Below are positions 42,325-61,033 of a stretch of 64,000 nt of DNA, in pieces. Position numbers and translations under genes: made by a program. The notes beneath the pieces are model-generated. The model did no database searches and had not been told where the DNA came from. It saw only the letters and a program-made list of their open reading frames with translations. Every line of letters begins with the position of its first letter. Within the stretch, counting starts at the first letter, position 1. The stretch comes from a virus: positions 96,001-160,000 of IMG/VR virus record IMGVR_UViG_3300049830_000285. One strand, given 5' to 3'.

Positions 42325-42399
42325 TGGTGGGCCACGAAGGAATCGAACCTTGTCCTACACCGTGTCGAGGTATTGTACTACCATTATACGTCGCAGCCC
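42325..42399 (-). tRNA. Atypical tRNA-Val(GAC)
   Basis: Loop UC-GAC-AC (C33); acceptor GGGCUGCG/CGUGGCCC folds 8/4; UUCGAUU T-loop; A73, encoded CCA. Confidence 0.7.
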
Positions 42400-42404
42400 G
42401 TTGT

Positions 42405-42722
42405 TTATCGCGATTTAAAATATTTGTTTTGCGGCATATACCAGAAATCTGGACTGTTAAATTCTTCGTAATATGCCCACACTTCGCCCATAAAGATATC
42501 AGTAATACCTTGGTCAATACATTCTTTCATAGAGTGTACGCTTAAAACATTTGATATTCTGCCTTGTGAATCAACTCCGAATGCTATCCATCGTGCTTCA
42601 TCTGACGACCTAAAGTTGTATGTCTTAATGACATCGGCTTCAAAGCCTTTTTCTTTTAGTAAAGCTGCTAATCGTGCAGTAAGTGTGTTCGGCTTTACAT
42701 TCGCCACAATCATTTTAGCCAT
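42405..42722 (-). CDS. Hypothetical protein
   Basis: 105-aa ORF upstream of tRNA-Val(GAC). Confidence 0.55.
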   Translation of the reverse strand: MAKMIVANVKPNTLTARLAALLKEKGFEADVIKTYNFRSSDEARWIAFGVDSQGRISNVLSVHSMKECIDQGITDIFMGEVWAYYEEFNSPDFWYMPQNKYFKSR

Positions 42723-42744
42723 TGGTTGCTACTCACTCTTGATG

Positions 42745-43233
42745 TTAATATGATGATTTTAGTTCCACAACTAAATGAGGGTAAAGAATGGCGAGCGAAA
42801 CGTTGTCCTCTCCATCGTGATTTCTCACTCCCAAAAACTGTGCTTGTGGCAATATAAATTGTGAATTTTCCGGGCATTCATCTGAAGTTAGAACTTCCAT
42901 TCCAAGACGATGAGCTTTGCGCTCCGACGATGGATGACTTATTAAGTATACGCAATCCATATAATTTTCTAATATACACATTGCGCGATTAATCTCAGAA
43001 CTCACATTCGAAGGATTGATTTCAATAGCCTTTTGCAACATTTTAATTAAGGCAGCATCTTCATTTTCAATCTCGTCTTGCCATGTTATAAATTCCTCAG
43101 CATGTATAACCTTCGCCTCTCCATCGCGCCAAATAACGGCACATTGTTGCTCAACACCCTCTGGTGGTTCAATACTATATCTCGTGTTACAATACAGGTC
43201 ATCAAACAAAACTTTTTTGGTTAATTCATTCAT
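42745..43233 (-). CDS. Hypothetical protein with capsid-like C-terminal segment
   Basis: TGTATAAT-N6-ATG; VLTSDECPENSQFILPQAQFLGV. Confidence 0.55.
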   Translation of the reverse strand: MNELTKKVLFDDLYCNTRYSIEPPEGVEQQCAVIWRDGEAKVIHAEEFITWQDEIENEDAALIKMLQKAIEINPSNVSSEINRAMCILENYMDCVYLISHPSSERKAHRLGMEVLTSDECPENSQFILPQAQFLGVRNHDGEDNVSLAILYPHLVVELKSSY

Positions 43234-43263
43234 GCCTTTATTATACACAATCACTGATTATAA

Positions 43264-43339
43264 TGGTACTCAGAACAGGAGTCGAACCTGCATAAAACTC
43301 CTTGTAACGAAGCTGTTACTGCCTTTGCACTATCTGAGC
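43264..43339 (-). tRNA. tRNA-Val(UAC)
   Basis: GCUCAGA/UCUGAGU; GCUUC-GUUACAA-GGAGU; GCAGG-UUCGACU-CCUGU; ACCA. Confidence 0.85.
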
Positions 43340-43340
43340 A

Positions 43341-43661
43341 TTAATTGAAGGCTAAATCGCTGAGTATCTTGTCGTAGATACCACCCATTCCTTCTTCCTG
43401 TTGCTGAACAAGTTTGACAATATCTCGAATAACTTCTGAAGTGTTGGAGTTGATGTCAATATGTATTCTGTTTTTTTCATTGCTTAATTCCAAAAAATAA
43501 CAACCCTCGTTGCCAACTACTACCTTCCATTCTCCAACAAATGTTTGCCATCTGTCGTATCCTCGGTTAATCCGAGTCCATTTGAGTTTATTGTCACAAG
43601 TTTTCTTTTCGATTTCTTCGGCAATTTTCATTTGCTTATGGCTGTATTCTGTCATAAGCAT
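43341..43661 (-). CDS. Hypothetical protein
   Basis: ORF between two tRNAs. Confidence 0.55.
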   Translation of the reverse strand: MLMTEYSHKQMKIAEEIEKKTCDNKLKWTRINRGYDRWQTFVGEWKVVVGNEGCYFLELSNEKNRIHIDINSNTSEVIRDIVKLVQQQEEGMGGIYDKILSDLAFN

Positions 43662-43677
43662 CAGTTTACCATAAAAA

Positions 43678-43763
43678 TGGTCGGCATGGCAGGACTCGAA
43701 CCTACGTGAACTTTCGCTTCCATCTTATCAGGATGGCACTCTACCAATCTGAGTTACACGCCG
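43678..43763 (-). tRNA. tRNA-Ile(GAU) with 14-nt variable arm
   Basis: CGGCGUG/CAUGCCG; CCAUC-CUGAUAA-GAUGG; variable AAGCGAAAGUUCAC; ACCA. Confidence 0.85.
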
Positions 43764-43766
43764 AAA

Positions 43767-44252
43767 TTATTCTGTTTTCAAGCATTGAGCTATTTGCTTG
43801 ATTAAGGTGTCAGAAGTGACATAGGAGGCTAAACTGCAATAAAGAGAAGAAGACTGAAGTTCAGCAATGTAAGAATTAACCTTGGCAACAAGTTCTTCAA
43901 TGGCTTTCTTCTCAGTGCTATTTTTGTATTTGTAAGCCTTAATGATATCTAGTTTTTGTGTGAAAAATTCTATGTCAAACGTAGCATCTACATTACCAAT
44001 GTCAATAAGCTTTACTCCCTCAAATTGCTGGATGATATTTCGCTCATCTGGAGTCGTTGAACAAGTTACCATTGGGCCTTCAATAAAAACGTGCATGCCC
44101 ATATAATCATAAATTTGCACTTGATGCAATCGCGCAAACATGAGCGACATGTAGTCTTCATCTTCCAAAAAGATTTTGGTGTATTGGACTTCAGTTTTCT
44201 CTTCACCTAAGGTTCGAAAAGAACGACATGTGCTATGGCTAATCATAGTCAC
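43767..44252 (-). CDS. Hypothetical protein
   Basis: ORF in the minus-strand run. Confidence 0.5.
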   Translation of the reverse strand: MTMISHSTCRSFRTLGEEKTEVQYTKIFLEDEDYMSLMFARLHQVQIYDYMGMHVFIEGPMVTCSTTPDERNIIQQFEGVKLIDIGNVDATFDIEFFTQKLDIIKAYKYKNSTEKKAIEELVAKVNSYIAELQSSSLYCSLASYVTSDTLIKQIAQCLKTE

Positions 44253-44294
44253 AGCATACCTGAAAGTTGTTGCCGTTTTTAGGCGGCAACAATC

Positions 44295-44690
44295 TCATTT
44301 TCGTCGCTCGAAGCTCACCTCAACAGAATAGTATGTATCCAGATTAGCGCACCAACGAATCACGAGTGACCCCTTGAATGTACCAATACGGTAAAACGTC
44401 CACAGCAAATCTGAATCGTCTTCCGAAGAAGATTCATCAGCATATGCGACTGGGGCTCCGACGAGACTTTGTGGGTCTCCGCAGATATCCTCAATGTAAA
44501 CGAGTTCACAGCAATCCTGCCCGTGATACATGATGTAAGACTCCGTTTCGTCTACAGTAAACACGATTTCGTCGCGATTTACCTTGACATCACTTAATAT
44601 CTTTCCAACAAGGTCACTGAACTTTGGCGATGGTTGTCTAGTTGTTTGTATGTTTGTCATATCAATGTCGCGCAACAAACTATAGAACAA
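44295..44690 (-). CDS. Conserved phage hypothetical protein
   Basis: MYHGQDCCELVYIEDICGD..WTFYRIGT.KG..VIRW. Confidence 0.7.
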   Translation of the reverse strand: MFYSLLRDIDMTNIQTTRQPSPKFSDLVGKILSDVKVNRDEIVFTVDETESYIMYHGQDCCELVYIEDICGDPQSLVGAPVAYADESSSEDDSDLLWTFYRIGTFKGSLVIRWCANLDTYYSVEVSFERRK

Positions 44691-44788
44691 TTCTAATATA
44701 CTTCAAAAACCACCACTTATAAGCTTTTTTTGATTATTTTTTAAAAAGGCCTGAATTTCCGTGTCTCCATTGTCGTTTTATATATGTA

Positions 44789-45046
44789 ATGAAAAACTTA
44801 CGTAACATTAACCTCTCGCCAAAAACACAATCCGAAGTCTACGCTTGGATGACTTGCGCAATTCTCGCGCACACTCGAATGGGCGTTAGTTTTACTCCCA
44901 AGGGAGCGAAACTCGCAAAGGAGATTAAAATGGCTCCTGAAGCATTTTTAAAGGTAGTGGATGAGCTACAGAAAGAGAATGCGTTCGGCTTCACTGAGTT
45001 AACAAGCGAAGAAGCGGAAGAGCTTAAACGTTGGGTGAAAGAATAA
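44789..45046 (+). CDS. Hypothetical protein
   Basis: 85-aa ORF convergent on tRNA-Ala. Confidence 0.55.
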   Translation: MKNLRNINLSPKTQSEVYAWMTCAILAHTRMGVSFTPKGAKLAKEIKMAPEAFLKVVDELQKENAFGFTELTSEEAEELKRWVKE

Positions 45047-45064
45047 CATCATGTTGAAAAAATT

Positions 45065-45143
45065 TGGTGGAGGATACGGGATTCCAACCCGTCTGTTTTC
45101 TTCCTTGCAAAAGAAGCGACCACCGCCAGTAGTCCTATCCCCC
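45065..45143 (-). tRNA. tRNA-Ala(UGC), atypical
   Basis: GGGGGAU/AUCCUCC with G3.U70; UUUGCAA loop; A8; T-loop UUGGAAU; 7-nt variable loop; ACCA. Confidence 0.8.
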
Positions 45144-46380: not shown

Positions 46381-46456
46381 TGGTGGAGATAGCGAGATTT
46401 GAACTCGCAACCTATTCAATGCCATTGAATTGCTCTCCCAATTGAGCTATATCCCC
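46381..46456 (-). tRNA. tRNA-Ala(GGC)
   Basis: GGGGAUA/UAUCUCC with G3.U70; AUUCA-AUGGCAU-UGAAU; ACCA. Confidence 0.92.
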
Positions 46457-46467
46457 AGTTGATATCT

Positions 46468-46541
46468 TGGTCGGCATACTAAGAATCGAACTTAGATAAA
46501 TCGGTTATCAGCCGAACCCTCTACCATTGAGGTATATGCCG
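46468..46541 (-). tRNA. tRNA-Ile(GAU)
   Basis: CGGCAUA/UAUGCCG; UUCGG-CUGAUAA-CCGAU; CUAAG-UUCGAUU-CUUAG; ACCA. Confidence 0.92.
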
Positions 46542-46545
46542 AGGT

Positions 46546-46619
46546 TGGTAGGCAGTGAAGGAATCAAACCTTCACTTCTCCCTAATCAGGGGAGCAGTCT
46601 ATCATTAACTTAACCGCCC
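46546..46619 (-). tRNA. tRNA-Ile(GAU) with U37
   Basis: GGGCGGU/ACUGCCU; CUCCC-CUGAUUA-GGGAG; D-loop lacks GG; T-loop UUUGAUU; ACCA. Confidence 0.8.
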
Positions 46620-46634
46620 ATGTGTGGAATAAAT

Positions 46635-46713
46635 TGGTGGAGGGCACGAGACTCGAACTCGTCTGCTGTCCATATTGCAAGTATGGCAATCACACCAGGC
46701 AATTCCGCCCCCC
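46635..46713 (-). tRNA. tRNA-Ala(UGC), atypical
   Basis: GGGGGGC/GCCCUCC with G3.U70; CCAUA-CUUGCAA-UAUGG; G8; 7-nt variable loop; ACCA. Confidence 0.85.
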
Positions 46714-46730
46714 ATGTGTGATTAAAATTG

Positions 46731-46805
46731 TGGTGGGCGATGAGGGATTCGAACCCCCGACCAATAGAATGTAAATCTACTGCGCTTCCGCTGCGCCAAT
46801 CGCCC
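46731..46805 (-). tRNA. tRNA-Val(UAC)
   Basis: GGGCGAU/AUCGCCC; GUAGA-UUUACAU-UCUAU; UUCGAAU T-loop; ACCA. Confidence 0.92.
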
Positions 46806-47145
46806 TTGGTATTTCACACAATCCAGCGTGAATTTTAGCATGACAGTTTCTACATACCAAAACGCATTTATCCATTTCAGCTTGTAGTCTTTTCAGTGAA
46901 ACCATCTTTCTGACCAATGTTGCTACACAATCATCTTTGTCTTTAAGATGGTGAAAATCTAAACATACGATTTCTGATTCTCCACAACAAACACAAGGAT
47001 TTTTTTGCTTCCATGCGTCTACATGGGCTTTATTTCTTTCTCGCTTACCCTGTCTATGGAATTTAGCATTTTCTTTTTTTCGTGCAGCATTTACTGGATT
47101 AGCATACCAATTTTGGTGATAGATTTTTCTTTCTTCGGCGTTCAT
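46777..47145 (-). CDS. HNH endonuclease; 3' end overlaps tRNA-Val
   Basis: CVCCGESEIVCLDFHH..KCVLVCRNCHAKIH; paralog of 48887..49249. Confidence 0.85.
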   Translation of the reverse strand: MNAEERKIYHQNWYANPVNAARKKENAKFHRQGKRERNKAHVDAWKQKNPCVCCGESEIVCLDFHHLKDKDDCVATLVRKMVSLKRLQAEMDKCVLVCRNCHAKIHAGLCEIPRAIGAAEAQ

Positions 47146-47183
47146 AGGTGTTTATTCTTATACATATGTTTACACACCTCTTT

Positions 47184-47225
47184 TCTCCGTGTAAAAGAGT
47201 AACTCTACCGCTGAGTTAATCGCCC
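47184..47225 (-). pseudogene. 5' fragment of tRNA-Val(UAC) lacking T-arm and 3' acceptor strand
   Basis: GGGCGAU UA ACUC AGCGGUA GAGU U ACUCU UUUACAC GGAGA, then runs into the HNH upstream region. Confidence 0.8.
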
Positions 47226-47230
47226 GTAAA

Positions 47231-47306
47231 AGACGGAAAGCGAAAACCATATTGCCTATCGAACCCAACTTAATGGGATTAGAAGTAATGACTTTCATAG
47301 CCGCCT
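47231..47306 (-). ncRNA. Unassigned 76-nt structured RNA in the tRNA array
   Basis: AGGCGG/CCGUCU closing stem; UGAAAGUCAU/AUGGUUUUCG 10-bp stem; inner hairpin AAUCCC/GGGUU; junction strands UACUUC and GCAAU. Confidence 0.5.
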
Positions 47307-47312
47307 AAATCT

Positions 47313-47387
47313 TGGTATCCGCACTGAGACTTGAACTCAGAACCTTTCGCTAATCAGGCAAACGCGCTACCATTGCGCCATACGGAT
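47313..47387 (-). tRNA. tRNA-Ile(GAU) with U37
   Basis: AUCCGUA/UGCGGAU; UUUGC-CUGAUUA-GCGAA; CUGAG-UUCAAGU-CUCAG; ACCA. Confidence 0.9.
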
Positions 47388-47405
47388 ATATCGGTGGATT
47401 AAAAT

Positions 47406-47480
47406 TGGTGGGCAGTGTGAGAATCGAACTCACTTCGTTTCCGTGTAAGAGAAACTCTATTACCAAATTGATAACCGCCC
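47406..47480 (-). tRNA. tRNA-Val(UAC)
   Basis: GGGCGGU/ACUGCCC; UUUCU-CUUACAC-GGAAA; GUGAG-UUCGAUU-CUCAC; ACCA. Confidence 0.88.
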
Positions 47481-47632: not shown

Positions 47633-47707
47633 TGGTACCAACGGGGGGAATCGAACCCCGCCCCCGAGAAGGTATGAACTTCTGGCCCTTTGCCCAAGGT
47701 CGTTGGC
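47633..47707 (-). tRNA. Atypical tRNA with CAU anticodon (Met or Ile2)
   Basis: GCCAACG/CGUUGGU; AGAAG-UUCAUAC-CUUCU; D-arm CCUU-GGGCA-AAGG without U8; imperfect T-stem; ACCA. Confidence 0.65.
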
Positions 47708-47772
47708 ATGTATTGATTTATCATGGGATGGAAGTTTGGGTACTTCCATCCCTCGCAATCAGCTCTATTCGG

Positions 47773-47801
47773 TTTTCAAAGTGCATTGTGAACTTTCGTT
47801 C
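47773..47801 (-). promoter_or_regulatory. rrn-like boxB hairpin plus boxA (Nus antitermination signal)
   Basis: GAAC-GAAA-GUUC, ACAA, then UGCACUUUGAAAA; matches the boxB-boxA order of rRNA leaders. Confidence 0.6.
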
Positions 47802-47814
47802 GGTGTATAAATCT

Positions 47815-47856
47815 AAAAAAAAAGAAGGATTCGGTCTTTCTGACCGAATCCTTCTT
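47815..47856 (-). terminator. Attenuator terminator
   Basis: AAGAAGGAUUCGGUC-AGAAA-GACCGAAUCCUUCUU (15 bp) ending in a 9-U run. Confidence 0.92.
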
Positions 47857-47879
47857 GCATTTCTCTTTGCTTGTGGAAC

Positions 47880-47957
47880 TTAGGTCAGAACGTCCTCTGC
47901 GATAATCGCAGCGGCTACAACAATTGCCATGACCATAATGTTTCTGTTGTATCTCAT
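47880..47957 (-). CDS. Leader peptide MRYNRNIMVMAIVVAAAIIAEDVLT (25 aa; not in the ORF track)
   Basis: AAGGA 13 nt upstream of ATG; 14 consecutive I/M/V/A codons; last codons contain UUCUGACC, complementary to GGUCAGAA of the terminator. Confidence 0.8.
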   Translation of the reverse strand: MRYNRNIMVMAIVVAAAIIAEDVLT

Positions 47958-47984
47958 TTTCGTTCTTTGTTCCTTTTTAAAATC

Positions 47985-48061
47985 TGGGTGCGAGCTGCTG
48001 GAATCTAACCAACCTACCGGGGTTTATGAGACCTCGCTCGTCAACAGTAGAGTAAGCCGCA
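47985..48061 (-). tRNA. Degenerate tRNA-like RNA with CAU anticodon at the 5' end of the attenuated transcript
   Basis: UGCGGCU/AGC(U)CGCA bulged acceptor; GAGGU-CUCAUAA-ACCCC; T-loop UUAGAUU; C73-CCA. Confidence 0.5.
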
Positions 48062-48066
48062 TATTC

Positions 48067-48095
48067 ATTATGCACTGTCAATATGCATTTGTCAA
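48067..48095 (-). promoter_or_regulatory. Sigma70-type promoter of the leader/tRNA operon
   Basis: TTGACA (48095-48090), 17 nt, CATAAT (48072-48067); predicted +1 at the start of the CAU tRNA-like element. Confidence 0.8.
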
Positions 48096-48129
48096 CAACA
48101 TTTGAGGATTTTTTCAAATCTTTTTGTTT

Positions 48130-51323: not shown

Positions 51324-53177
51324 ATGAAAGTTTGCATGGCACAATTAGAGGTAAGAACAGGCGACCTCGACGGAAACACTCATCAAATCATCGAAACCCT
51401 TTTCGACAACCAAGATAAGGCAGATGTTATTCTCTTTCCAGAATTTATGGTTTGCGGATACAACTGCGGTAGCTTGTTTGAATCAGAAGAATTCATTGAC
51501 GATTGTCTGAATAAGATTGATACAATCAAGCACTTGGTTGGTGACAACCTTGTTATGGTGGGGTGTCCCACTTACGCAGAGCCGAAGTATGAGCCAAATG
51601 GTAATCTTCGACTTCACAACTCTGTGTTCGTTATGCACCAGGGCAAGATTATTCACGTTCACCACAAGAATTTGCTCGCAAATGATTTCCAACACGAAGA
51701 CCGAAAGTATTTCATTCCTGGCGAGACTGTTGAGCCATTCCAATATAGGGGCAAGTGGTATGGCGTTCTTACTTGCGAGGATTGTTGGAGAGGCGACCAC
51801 ACACGAGATTTGGTGGGTGAGCTTAAGGAACAACAGCCGAGCATTGAATCCATATTCTGCTTGAACTATTCTTACTTCACTTACTCCAAGGCTGACTTCC
51901 GAGCCAACTTGCTTTCAGGTTTGTCAAAGGAACACGAAGTTTTCATTTTCTACGTCAACGCAGTTGGTATTGGAGATATCGTAAAGAATTACATTTCTTA
52001 CGACGGTCGTTCTTTGGTATATACGCCAAAGGGAGAGCTGCTTTGCGAAATGGCATCGTTTGCCAAGGATGTTCACATCGTTGATACTGATTATATGGAC
52101 GGTAAGGTGATGAAGACTCAACATTCCCCAAAGAATATGATTAACTTTGCACCCTCAAGAAAGGGTAAGGGAAGTTCAAAGATTACGCCAGCGCCACTTT
52201 GTGCTGTAGAATATTCAACAAGCCTTCGCGACCATAAGTGGACTAAGTATTCTCGAATTTGGAGTTCCATGCTTTATGTTCAAAAGGAACTATTTGCGCA
52301 ATGTGGAATCAAGAAGGCTCAAGTACACGTTTCTGGTGGAGTTGATAGTGCGGTTAATGCTGTTCTTTGCGCCAAGGCGATGGGAGAAGAAAATTGTGTA
52401 TTCGTCACAAACCCAAGTCAGCACAACGGAGATTTCACAAAGAGTAACGCGCAGTCTATTTGTGATAAGTTGGGTGTACCGCTTTATTGGGTGCCAATCC
52501 AGACAATCGTTGATGCATCACTTGAGGCTTGCGATAAGGGTATTGGTCAAAAGCTTTCCGCCGTTCCATTTGTTGTTGGTACATCCGAAGCCACTGTGAG
52601 AAGCACCGTAGGCTTGACAATGGCAAACTTCTTCAATAGTGGTATCGTTTCTACTGGAAATCACACAGAAAACGTACTTGGTTGGTTTTCGTTCCACGAC
52701 GTTGGCAGCATTGGCGTCTATCAGCCAATCGGTGACTTAACTAAGCTTGAACTCTTTGACCTCTGTGGATTCGTTAACAATCTTTACGGCGAGGAGCTTA
52801 TCCCGAGAGAGCTATGGGACGAAGAAGTGCGAACACAACCTGCCGCAGAACTTGCTGACTCCACCGACGACCCATTCGATTATCAAATCTATTCTGGAAT
52901 CTGCGCTGAAATGATTCGAGCGAGAAAGCTTCCAAGAGACTTGATTCGAGACTTTGACATGAGAAATCTGAATGAAGACGCTTTTCCTCCAACGAAGCAC
53001 TATGATTACTACGCCGACAGAGAGAAGTTCGAGAATGCTGTAAACGACGCTTACAAGCGAAGCAAGAGAAGTGTTTATAAGTGTGCTCAATCTGCGCCAG
53101 TGCTAATCATGTCGCCACGGTCAAGAGGATTCAGTTCGCGAGAAACGATTCTTAACTTCTACGACGCGACTGTTTAG
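51324..53177 (+). CDS. nadE: Glutamine-dependent NAD+ synthetase
   Basis: Nitrilase domain (LFPEF, HHKNLL..E.KYF, TCEDCW) fused to synthetase domain (VSGGVDSAV, STGNHTE, QPIGDLTK, PAAEL). Confidence 0.9.
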   Translation: MKVCMAQLEVRTGDLDGNTHQIIETLFDNQDKADVILFPEFMVCGYNCGSLFESEEFIDDCLNKIDTIKHLVGDNLVMVGCPTYAEPKYEPNGNLRLHNSVFVMHQGKIIHVHHKNLLANDFQHEDRKYFIPGETVEPFQYRGKWYGVLTCEDCWRGDHTRDLVGELKEQQPSIESIFCLNYSYFTYSKADFRANLLSGLSKEHEVFIFYVNAVGIGDIVKNYISYDGRSLVYTPKGELLCEMASFAKDVHIVDTDYMDGKVMKTQHSPKNMINFAPSRKGKGSSKITPAPLCAVEYSTSLRDHKWTKYSRIWSSMLYVQKELFAQCGIKKAQVHVSGGVDSAVNAVLCAKAMGEENCVFVTNPSQHNGDFTKSNAQSICDKLGVPLYWVPIQTIVDASLEACDKGIGQKLSAVPFVVGTSEATVRSTVGLTMANFFNSGIVSTGNHTENVLGWFSFHDVGSIGVYQPIGDLTKLELFDLCGFVNNLYGEELIPRELWDEEVRTQPAAELADSTDDPFDYQIYSGICAEMIRARKLPRDLIRDFDMRNLNEDAFPPTKHYDYYADREKFENAVNDAYKRSKRSVYKCAQSAPVLIMSPRSRGFSSRETILNFYDATV

Positions 53178-55047: not shown

Positions 55048-56418
55048 TTATTCTTGCACTGGCTTTACATAGGGGAACCAGCTCACCTGTCGAATGTGAC
55101 TTGCGTCAGAGAGTGCCATAGCTAATCGGTCAATGCCAATGCCGACGCCAAAAGCTGGCGGCATTCCACAAGCTAAGGCGTATACAAAGTCGTGGTCGAT
55201 TTGATTACCAAGAGCATCAAATTGTGATTGAAATGCCGCGAGTTGAACTTGCGGGTCGTTTTGCTCACAGAATCCATTTGCAATTTCCATACCACTGATA
55301 TATGCTTCAAATCTCTCTGCATACTTTCCATCTTGACTTCTAGCTAATGGCGAAATACAAGATGGGTGATGTGTGATAATTGTCGGAGACAAAAGCTTGG
55401 GCTCAACAAAAGACTTCATGCATTCTTCTAGCATTTCTAATGTTTCTGGCTTCGAGAAATCCCACTCATCAATATCATGACCAGCGTGTTCATAGATGGC
55501 TTCACGCATTGTCATTGTTGTCCAATCGCTTTCATTAATCTTAACTTCAAAATGTTGTGAGGCCGCTTGTACGATTACCTTGAATCGCTCAATTCCTTGT
55601 GTGAAGTTATCATACGCAGTGTAATACTCCAGAAGAGTAAACTCTGGATTGTGATGTGCGCTGATACCTTCGTTTCGGTATACAGTGCCAATTTCATACA
55701 CGCGCTCAAAACCGCCACATAAAAGCTTCTTAAGCTGAATTTCCAATGAAATGCGCAGCTTTACGTCCGCTTCATATGCGTTGTAATGTGTATCGAATGT
55801 CTTTGCCTCTGCTCCGCCCGGAATTTGAAGTAACGTTGGAGTTTGAACTTCGATGAACGATGCAGTGTTGAGAGTTTCGCGAATATTTGTAATCATTCGC
55901 GAGCGTTCAACAAGTCGTTGTCGCAAATCATCATCAATGAGCATCGCCAAGTGTCTATGACGCATTAGAATTTCTGCATCACGCACTTGATTGAATGCTT
56001 CACCATCCTTTTCTTGACCATAAGGAACTGTCACCAGAGCCTTGCTCAAAATATGGAAATTCGATACAAAGATTGACTTTTCTCCAGCAACCGTTGCCTT
56101 GTAAACACCCTCGAAGTGAACTAAGTCACCTGAGTGAATGTGCTTAACAATCTGCTTCCAGCCCTCGGCGGTAAAGCCTTGTTGAAAAACAACCTGGATG
56201 CGTGATAGCTGTGTTGCATTTGGAGTTTCTGAATACAAAATTGTGGCAAATGTCATACTCCCCATACGTCGAATAGTTAAAATTCGGCCGACGAGTGAAA
56301 CACTAGTTCCCTCTTGATAACCACCACGTGGTATCCAGATGTATGGAGTATCCTGTAAATATGGGCGCTGTCCTAACTGGCGCAATTGTTCTAAACTGTC
56401 TATTCTATCTGTTTGCAT
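55048..56418 (-). CDS. lysS: Lysyl-tRNA synthetase, class II
   Basis: OB fold (GRILTIRRMG), EVQTP, GGAEAKTF, LRISLE, FRNEG-like YRNEG..HNPEFT..EYY, ERFE..EIANG, GVGIGIDRL. Confidence 0.92.
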   Translation of the reverse strand: MQTDRIDSLEQLRQLGQRPYLQDTPYIWIPRGGYQEGTSVSLVGRILTIRRMGSMTFATILYSETPNATQLSRIQVVFQQGFTAEGWKQIVKHIHSGDLVHFEGVYKATVAGEKSIFVSNFHILSKALVTVPYGQEKDGEAFNQVRDAEILMRHRHLAMLIDDDLRQRLVERSRMITNIRETLNTASFIEVQTPTLLQIPGGAEAKTFDTHYNAYEADVKLRISLEIQLKKLLCGGFERVYEIGTVYRNEGISAHHNPEFTLLEYYTAYDNFTQGIERFKVIVQAASQHFEVKINESDWTTMTMREAIYEHAGHDIDEWDFSKPETLEMLEECMKSFVEPKLLSPTIITHHPSCISPLARSQDGKYAERFEAYISGMEIANGFCEQNDPQVQLAAFQSQFDALGNQIDHDFVYALACGMPPAFGVGIGIDRLAMALSDASHIRQVSWFPYVKPVQE

Positions 56419-60845: not shown

Positions 60846-60859
60846 TTAACTATTTTACC

Positions 60860-60955
60860 TTACTTTTTCTTTTTTGGTGCTGGGGCTGGTTTGCCCTTAG
60901 GAGCCTGCGGAGCTGTCTTTGCTTGTTTCTTCTGTTTGTCTTTGCCTTTTGCCAT
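60860..60955 (-). CDS. 31-aa Lys/Pro/Ala-rich peptide MAKGKDKQKKQAKTAPQAPKGKPAPAPKKKK
   Basis: Clean ATG..TAA ORF filling the gap upstream of tRNA-Cys. Confidence 0.55.
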   Translation of the reverse strand: MAKGKDKQKKQAKTAPQAPKGKPAPAPKKKK

Positions 60956-61033
60956 AGTAATAAATCATACTCTATGCGAAATGCTACTTCCTACATAAAT
61001 CCTCAATAAATATATGTGTGATATAATATAAGT

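Follow-up and report, generated by a model that had tools for sequence, protein, structure and literature searches.

A codon-matched leader ORF ahead of a phage tRNA block: a probable ribosome-mediated transcription attenuator with tRNA as its output

The locus described here is a compact transcription cassette on the minus strand of a virus genome, which leads from a promoter through a short ORF and an intrinsic terminator into a block of tRNA genes for Ile, Val, Ala and Met (the I/V/A/M cassette). It lies in a window of 64,000 nucleotides, the stretch of DNA that was analyzed, which corresponds to bases 96001-160000 of a virus record of 177,708 bp with 40% G+C (IMGVR_UViG_3300049830_000285). 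ARAGORN identifies 22 tRNAs in this genome, mostly grouped by amino acid. The sequence is found in public sequencing runs of freshwater and freshwater-sediment samples from three studies; the DNA runs that hold it contain identical copies and no natural variants, and no RNA run is among the listed holders.

The cassette promoter matches the consensus at 11 of 12 positions and carries a TCCTCAAA motif upstream of TTGACA. Only four copies of this extended motif exist in the genome, all of them on the minus strand and three of them ahead of leader ORFs. The aberrant CAU-anticodon tRNA-like RNA that follows scores 21.7 bits against the tRNA-Sec model, which is sub-threshold; it precedes the terminator and would therefore be made regardless of the state of the attenuator. 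A tRNA-Met gene farther upstream is located behind its own promoter and is therefore outside the control of the leader. The leader ORF, for which translation is predicted, is the sole ORF between the tRNA-like RNA and the terminator, so no choice among alternatives had to be made. The hairpin within its control codons is present in the minimum-energy fold and possibly represents an RNA polymerase pause or a 1:2-type element; the stem is identical in the homologous locus L058 (see below), where a 3-nt insertion sits in the loop. A sequence-only reading of this stretch had proposed the TTGACA-N17-CATAAT promoter, the 25-codon ORF, a block of 14 codons restricted to Ile, Val, Ala and Met, the CUGCGA/UCGCAG hairpin inside this block and a 15-bp terminator with a U run, and we recover each of them. 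Its AAGGA ribosome binding site is present, but at a long distance from the ATG, and its upstream CAU tRNA-like RNA is present and folded, but aberrant.

Table 1. Features of the I/V/A/M cassette and of related cassettes. Positions are in window numbering unless marked genome; L058 is the homologous locus in another phage, G001 a distant relative
Feature	Position	Strand	Description
tRNA-Met	49378-49304		upstream of cassette, behind own promoter
Promoter	48067..48108	-	TCCTCAAA motif; TTGACA-N17-CATAAT at 48095-48067 (-35 TTGACA 48095-48090, 17-nt spacer, -10 CATAAT 48072-48067)
Aberrant CAU-anticodon tRNA-like RNA	47985..48062	-	begins approximately at transcription start; from fold
Shine-Dalgarno-like AAGGA	47971..47975	-	13 nt ahead of ATG, long spacing
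Leader ORF	47880..47957	-	25 codons and TAA stop; translation predicted
Control block	47898..47939	-	codons 7-20, 14 codons, exclusively Ile/Met/Val/Ala
Hairpin inside control codons	47897..47911	-	CUGCGA/loop/UCGCAG; in minimum-energy fold
Antiterminator 5' strand (proposed)	47875..47890	-	UUCUGACC (47890-47883), stop codon, GUUCC
Intrinsic terminator	47822..47856	-	15 bp, 5-nt loop; antiterminator partner GGUCAGAA at 47845-47838
Terminator U tract	47813..47821	-	
BoxA-like piece GCACUUUGAA (47784-47775)	47775..47788	-	79% identical to L058, flanks less conserved
Hairpin after boxA-like piece	47725..47752	-	stem kept in L058 despite sequence change
Aberrant CAU tRNA-like RNA	47633..47707	-	encoded CCA; first RNA past terminator, cloverleaf-like fold
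Seven tRNA genes	46381..47480	-	Val(UAC), Ile(GAU), Val(UAC), Ala(UGC), Ile(GAU), Ile(GAU), Ala(GGC)
Truncated Val tRNA copy	~47226-47180	-	among the seven tRNA genes
HNH endonuclease ORF	47145-46777	-	among the seven tRNA genes
Four further tRNAs	42329..45143	-	ORFs interspersed
Ala(UGC) tRNA	45143-45065	-	
Ile(GAU) tRNA	43763-43678	-	
Val(UAC) tRNA	43339-43264	-	
Val(GAC)-like tRNA	42398-42329	-	odd anticodon loop; found by Infernal alone
Asn cassette	genome ~177,470-177,262		outside window; upstream of tRNA-Asn genes
Arg/Cys/Gln cassette	genome ~161,200-160,857		upstream of Gln/Gln/Gln/Arg/Cys/Arg array
G001 Leu/Ser-rich ORF			ahead of Leu tRNAs
G001 Gly/Ser/Thr/Asp-rich ORF			ahead of Gly, Ser, Thr and Asp tRNAs
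G001 ORF with Trp, Tyr, Phe, Pro, Glu, Ile, Val, Ala, Ser			ahead of a 12-tRNA array of exactly those types
G001 ORF ending QQRCRR			ahead of Gln, Gln, Arg, Arg and Cys tRNAs

The genes past the terminator are tRNAs and homing endonucleases, and the array tRNAs are all of Ile, Val, Ala or CAU types, with seven standard genes in the first 1.1 kb. The GCACUUUGAA piece ahead of them, which we take to resemble the boxA of rrn operons and phage lambda, could serve in processive antitermination across the array, which is untranslated. Twelve tRNAs had been counted behind the terminator from sequence; ARAGORN detects 10 of them and Infernal one more, but the CAU RNA that comes first is called by neither program. 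Transcription of the array from a promoter of its own downstream of the terminator would speak against attenuation. We find no same-strand match of at least 10/12 positions between the terminator and the first seven tRNAs, and a weak promoter-like site (9/12) within the HNH ORF, ahead of the second half of the array.

The amino acids of codons 7-20, Ile, Val, Ala and Met, are those of the tRNAs encoded downstream. Six-frame translation of the whole 177,708-bp genome yields 5135 stop-to-stop segments with 20 or more residues; among these, only the leader ORF contains 14 consecutive residues drawn from the four amino acids, and the next longest run has eight residues.

Two sister cassettes with the same type of promoter are present elsewhere in the genome. 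The ORF of the Asn cassette has 22 codons and includes the stretch NNNNAN; so high an Asn density, five in six codons, is found in only two segments genome-wide. The ORF is followed by a strong 15-16-bp terminator, which ends 3 nt ahead of the first tRNA-Asn. CUGGUAG in the 3' part of this ORF is complementary to CUACCAG in the terminator 5' arm. In the Arg/Cys/Gln cassette, the end of the ORF is rich in these three residues and includes the sequence QQRCRR; its 10 R/C/Q in 14 codons are the genome-wide maximum, which is common to three segments. All six Arg codons in this leader are CGN, matching the array anticodons GCG and UCG, while the long ORFs of the phage use AGA more often than any other Arg codon (the chance of six CGN out of six is 0.043). 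The ORF runs into a long conserved hairpin of 23 pairs, five of them compensatory, followed by a weak U tract. The 5' arm of this hairpin is formed by the final control codons together with the stop codon, and a stalled ribosome would therefore block the hairpin directly; it is uncertain that the hairpin acts as a transcription terminator. Since this cassette has no good U tract, the cassettes would not all be alike in mechanism.

The NAD-synthase-like gene in the neighborhood identifies a distant relative, G001 (378,848 bp, 33 tRNA genes), whose NAD synthase is 51% identical. G001 contains at least four matched leader cassettes, in which mini-ORFs and then terminators precede the arrays (Table 1), and weaker Lys and His leader candidates. 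A leader pattern search of metagenome contigs returned three more distinct Arg/Cys/Gln cassettes with only Gln, Arg and Cys tRNAs behind them and a different N-terminal peptide sequence in each; the QQRCRR sequence was imposed by the search pattern in these cases, whereas neither an open frame nor the types of tRNA downstream formed part of the pattern. Among the Arg/Cys/Gln variants, the sole array with a tRNA-Arg(UCU) follows the sole leader with three AGA codons. DNA searches of GenBank phages with cassette and array gave stray tRNA-like matches only, the neighboring 288-aa protein has no relatives in viral contigs, and a protein search with the 92-aa ORF upstream matched only itself. In the closest relative (ERZ761597 NODE_22 type), all contigs break at the HNH/tRNA region, just short of the expected cassette.

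The sequence-only reading had suggested that leader codons might track the anticodons downstream, and they do so in three cassettes here and in at least four in G001. When we permuted seven leaders over seven arrays, the true assignment gave the highest summed enrichment, and two of the 5040 permutations attain this score (one Arg/Cys/Gln array can be exchanged for the other). This ranking bears on the view that ORF composition matches the array by chance, for which we can cite the general abundance of short ORFs and nothing else. Set against the uniqueness of the I/V/A/M run in the genome, and the conservation of the cassette and its composition in another phage, chance is an exceedingly improbable explanation.

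This other phage, a third type represented by loci L058 and L061, was located by a weak protein match to an 86-aa neighbor. L058 provides the homologous locus that the sequence-only reading had hoped for, with all parts in place: a TCCTCAAA/TTGACA/CATAAT promoter, a tRNA-like RNA with a CAU loop at the same position, AGGAA only 5 nt ahead of the ATG, a 27-codon ORF with a 15-codon I/V/A/M block and the same final codons as in the leader here, a terminator and both antiterminator partners. Past the terminator we find a GCACUUUGA piece, another hairpin and an array of 13 tRNAs, exclusively for Met, Val, Ala and Ile. The L058 leader starts with five Asn codons, yet tRNA-Asn is absent from its array. 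Compared with our leader ORF there are two indels, each of 3 nt and in frame, which add I/V/A/M codons only, and the substitutions in the control block likewise remain within the I/V/A/M set. Selection thus acts on frame and composition, not on peptide sequence, which is what a codon sensor would predict, whereas a functional peptide would predict otherwise.

The L058 comparison also bears on a rival view, in which the terminator is constitutive (releasing a short CAU-RNA transcript or acting as an insulator), the ORF is either untranslated or encodes a hydrophobic peptide with a function of its own, and the array has its own promoters. The core of the leader peptide is indeed hydrophobic, the Shine-Dalgarno spacing is long, the upstream tRNA-Met has its own promoter, and there is the 9/12 site inside the array. 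This view, however, leaves unexplained why composition and not sequence is retained in the homologous ORF, and why Asn-, Arg/Cys/Gln-, Leu-rich and other leaders precede matching tRNAs; in addition, the 14-residue core contains neither Leu nor Phe, and it is too short and too unusual to be a membrane helix. We thus regard a constitutive terminator as very unlikely. A type-I-toxin-like hydrophobic peptide was considered as well and rejected, as the leaders of the sister cassettes are hydrophilic and correspond individually to their arrays.

Each of the 15 terminator pairs is preserved in L058, six of them through compensatory double changes. These map exclusively to the lower 11 pairs, and neither the loop nor any of the top four pairs differs between the two loci. 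The proposed antiterminator strand, taken together with the stop codon, has an identity of 88%, and the terminator top and loop 92%, as compared with 36-45% for the lower terminator arms, 61% for the spacer and 44% for the tRNA-like RNA. Constraint within the cassette is thus strongest at UUCUGACC and GGUCAGAA. Indirectly, this pattern suggests that the lower stem is constrained to pair and the top is constrained in sequence, as would be expected if the top had a second partner. Covariation, which had been proposed as a check on both structures, is seen in the terminator, but the antiterminator strands are conserved without it; some of this conservation could stem from the coding role of the final codons.

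UUCUGACC is the exact complement of GGUCAGAA, as the sequence-only reading had it. The proposed antiterminator 5' strand forms the best duplex with the terminator 5' arm and loop (-15.2 kcal/mol, p = 0.022 compared with shuffled sequences), and the L058 duplex extends over 14 bp with one bulge (p = 0.012). The core in our cassette comprises 8 bp only and would occupy no more than the top four pairs of the 15-bp terminator stem. In all five terminator-type cassettes (I/V/A/M, Asn, Leu, Gly/Ser/Thr/Asp and mixed), a strong canonical terminator directly follows the ORF, and the best duplex with the terminator 5' arm and loop is located at the ORF 3' end or stop codon; it beats the shuffles in four of them (p = 0.004-0.032; the fifth has p = 0.34).

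Assuming a standard ribosome footprint, which extends ∼15 nt to the 5' side of the A site and ∼12 nt to its 3' side, positions 47897-47870 lie under a ribosome at the stop codon; they include the whole antiterminator strand and not the terminator. Stalls with the A site on any control codon except the 14th keep UUCUGACC accessible. In folds of the nascent transcript with a stalled ribosome, 10-16 nt of the terminator arm and loop pair upstream, and fewer do so with the ribosome at the stop codon; among the ribosome-masked folds, those of the nascent transcript alone are informative, and weakly. In equilibrium folds, as soon as the 3' arm of the terminator is present, the terminator is invariably the structure of minimum energy, and the two states are not discriminated. 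The switch in an attenuator of this type must therefore be kinetic. The trp attenuator likewise has a kinetic switch, and in classical attenuators, too, the terminator is the equilibrium winner.

These results leave some room for a reading in which the mini-ORF is a codon-matched sensor but exerts its effect through Rho access, RNase processing or precursor stability, rather than through 8-bp antitermination. Such a route would fit a short antiterminator without covariation, a terminator that prevails in every equilibrium fold, and an Arg/Cys/Gln cassette that lacks a proper U tract and has its control codons in the 5' arm of the conserved hairpin. It would not account for the strong terminator directly after the ORF and the complementary strand at the stop codon in all five terminator-type cassettes, nor for the pairing partners being the best conserved parts of ours. 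We consider this reading unlikely, though less so than a constitutive terminator.

Given the parts, their order, the codon match, the conservation and the covarying terminator described above, we judge it likely that the I/V/A/M cassette works by ribosome-mediated, leader-peptide transcription attenuation and that the output under its control is the phage tRNA block. Attenuation of the trp/his/ilv type with a tRNA output had been put forward from the initial inspection, and the matching of cassettes to arrays and the L058 homologue support it. We infer translation of the leader ORF, the kinetic competition of the two structures and the physiological trigger as follows. Host sigma-70 RNA polymerase would start at the promoter and transcribe the CAU tRNA-like RNA and then the 25-codon ORF. 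With fast decoding, the ribosome would reach the stop codon and cover UUCUGACC and the stop region, the 15-bp terminator would form, and the array would stay untranscribed. If a cognate aminoacyl-tRNA were scarce, the ribosome would stall in the control block and leave UUCUGACC free to pair with GGUCAGAA, at the top of the terminator 5' arm and in the loop, as soon as the latter is made. This pairing would delay the terminator, so that polymerase could continue into the tRNA array, and the new tRNAs would relieve the stall, closing a negative feedback loop. The Ile, Val, Ala and Met tRNAs are thus probably made only when ribosomes slow on the corresponding codons.

The multivalent ilvGMEDA, ilvBN and thrL leaders (and also trpL, hisL, leuL and pheL) likewise consist of a promoter, a short translated ORF with clustered regulatory codons, which stand for several amino acids, and an intrinsic terminator. 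In ilv/thr-type attenuators a pairing competes with the terminator and the position of the ribosome decides, as we propose for the phage cassette. These are enterobacterial amino-acid operons with biosynthetic enzymes as their outputs, whereas the cassette described here is located in a phage genome and its output, tRNA, would feed back on the quantity that is sensed. In addition, the phage antiterminator strand is positioned at the stop codon and takes only the terminator top and loop, there is no clear region-1 anti-antiterminator, and in the absence of any ribosome the model predicts readthrough as the default, unlike in the trp leader. To our knowledge, all described leader-peptide attenuators control genes for amino-acid biosynthesis or for aminoacyl-tRNA synthetases. 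Among the latter is pheST of E. coli, where attenuation at the pheM leader controls phenylalanyl-tRNA synthetase by charged-tRNA availability. It resembles the phage cassettes as a leader-peptide attenuator of a translation component that responds to charged tRNA, but its output is a synthetase protein for one amino acid, as compared with tRNA arrays for up to nine amino acids in the phages.

T-box riboswitches also couple tRNA status to terminator readthrough by means of an antiterminator; they bind uncharged tRNA directly and without translation, whereas the phage sensor would be a translating ribosome. Searches of the window and of the other leaders with Rfam covariance models detected no T-box motif or specifier loop, and Rfam returned no leader family or sequence match in them other than tRNA. 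The Arg/Cys/Gln cassette, with its control codons in the hairpin 5' arm where a stalled ribosome would block the hairpin, bears some likeness to pyrBI. There the signal is polymerase pausing at low UTP, as opposed to codon-specific stalling in the phage cassette, and the I/V/A/M cassette differs from pyrBI in its use of a separate antiterminator.

What would be new in the I/V/A/M cassette is a regulated output that consists of tRNA, and the phage setting. The first inspection had known of no such case in phages, and our searches agree: we found no account of leader-peptide or attenuation control of tRNA genes, in phages or elsewhere, in the full-text literature (older subscription papers lie outside this coverage), and no paper on on-demand control by a codon-matched leader in the literature on phage tRNAs and attenuation. 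One potential exception would be an attenuator at the tRNA-Phe genes of E. coli, for which the literature search gave no confirmation. Leader-peptide attenuators read the supply of cognate aminoacyl-tRNA, and by the device alone the loss of a tRNA is indistinguishable from a shortage of its amino acid. As the output here is tRNA, the simplest logic would be a feedback that tops up the tRNA pool.

Phage-encoded tRNAs have been described to replace host tRNAs lost in infection and to counter tRNA-cleaving immunity; in their titles and abstracts these papers deal with what phage tRNAs do, as opposed to their control, which is our subject here (PMC10264068, PMC11555353, PMC11464382). In light of these papers, anticodon nucleases, toxins and the loss of rrn-encoded tRNAs are plausible triggers. 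We tentatively propose, as an idea that may well prove wrong, that large phages carry tRNA-pool meters for individual amino acids, each array being opened by stalls on its codon-matched mini-ORF and replacing tRNAs lost to host shut-off or to tRNA-cleaving defense. If true, such meters would add a general level of control to phage gene expression that has so far gone undescribed, and they would be the first attenuators to make the very molecule they sense. The cassettes described here would extend classical attenuation to a stable-RNA output with direct product feedback, and they would offer small, modular elements with which the speed of decoding can be read out for codons of choice.

The purpose of phage tRNA genes has been debated for decades, with codon compensation, replacement of degraded host tRNAs and escape from tRNA-targeting immunity as the proposed explanations. 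A codon-matched sensor for each array would mean that the phage measures its supply of tRNA and corrects it separately for each amino acid. The role of phage tRNAs would then become testable, by asking which of amino-acid starvation, anticodon nucleases and host shut-off opens each attenuator.

Behind the terminator of the cassette that carries the Ile/Val/Ala/Met leader ORF and its tRNA array, we located a conserved, boxA-like GCACUUUGAA piece followed by a hairpin. In L058, the locus of a third phage with a homologous cassette, the stem of this hairpin is retained although the sequence differs. Piece and hairpin together may serve the untranslated array as a processive-antitermination or processing signal.

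In the leader pattern, a short ORF is spelled in the amino acids of the tRNAs downstream. Five codons for Asn and one for Lys open the L058 leader (L058:16100–16120), and tRNA-Asn and tRNA-Lys are both absent from the array behind it. Either these N-terminal codons lie outside the sensor or the match between leader and array is not strict. The Lys/Ala/Pro-rich ORF ahead of a lone tRNA-Cys lacks both Cys codons and a terminator and therefore falls outside the pattern.

The class II synthetase and NAD synthase-like genes are both kept beside tRNA arrays in relatives, and we found no leader ORF ahead of the synthetase gene. Three giant ORFs of 2632, 2293, and 2874 amino acids are also present in the window. 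All three leaders of IMGVR_UViG_3300049830_000285 end in a TAA stop codon. The genome encodes an amber suppressor-type tRNA, and the distant 379-kb relative G001 has two tRNAs with a CUA anticodon and one tmRNA.

The leader-type promoter occurs a fourth time without a mini-ORF behind it. Degenerate tRNA-like pieces are found there instead, followed by a 214-amino acid ORF with a KWDG motif, which resembles the motif of nucleotidyl-transferase ligases. In one relative, a gene with a Pfam RNA_ligase domain comes after the tRNA array. Such ligase-like genes may provide a tRNA repair function tied to the arrays.

Features in and around the tRNA arrays (window coordinates unless marked)
Feature	Coordinates	Strand
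Giant ORFs, three in succession	492–23983	+
Second HNH ORF	46327–45611	
Truncated tRNA-Val(UAC) copy, then HNH endonuclease ORF	47226–46731	
GCACUUUGAA piece, then hairpin	47788–47725	
ORF similar to second HNH ORF	49249–48887	
Glutamine-dependent NAD synthase-like protein	51324–53177	+
Class II aminoacyl-tRNA synthetase, Asp/Lys/Asn type	55048–56418	-
31-codon ORF directly ahead of lone tRNA-Cys	60846–60960	-
Fourth leader-type promoter and downstream region	genome 164296–163355 (window 68296–67355, past window end)	
tRNA with CUA anticodon	genome 43328–43402 (outside window)	+

The 3' end of the HNH ORF behind the truncated tRNA-Val(UAC) copy overlaps an intact tRNA-Val. The relatives' assemblies all stop at the HNH/tRNA point of the array. 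The tRNA array appears to be undergoing remodelling by homing endonucleases.
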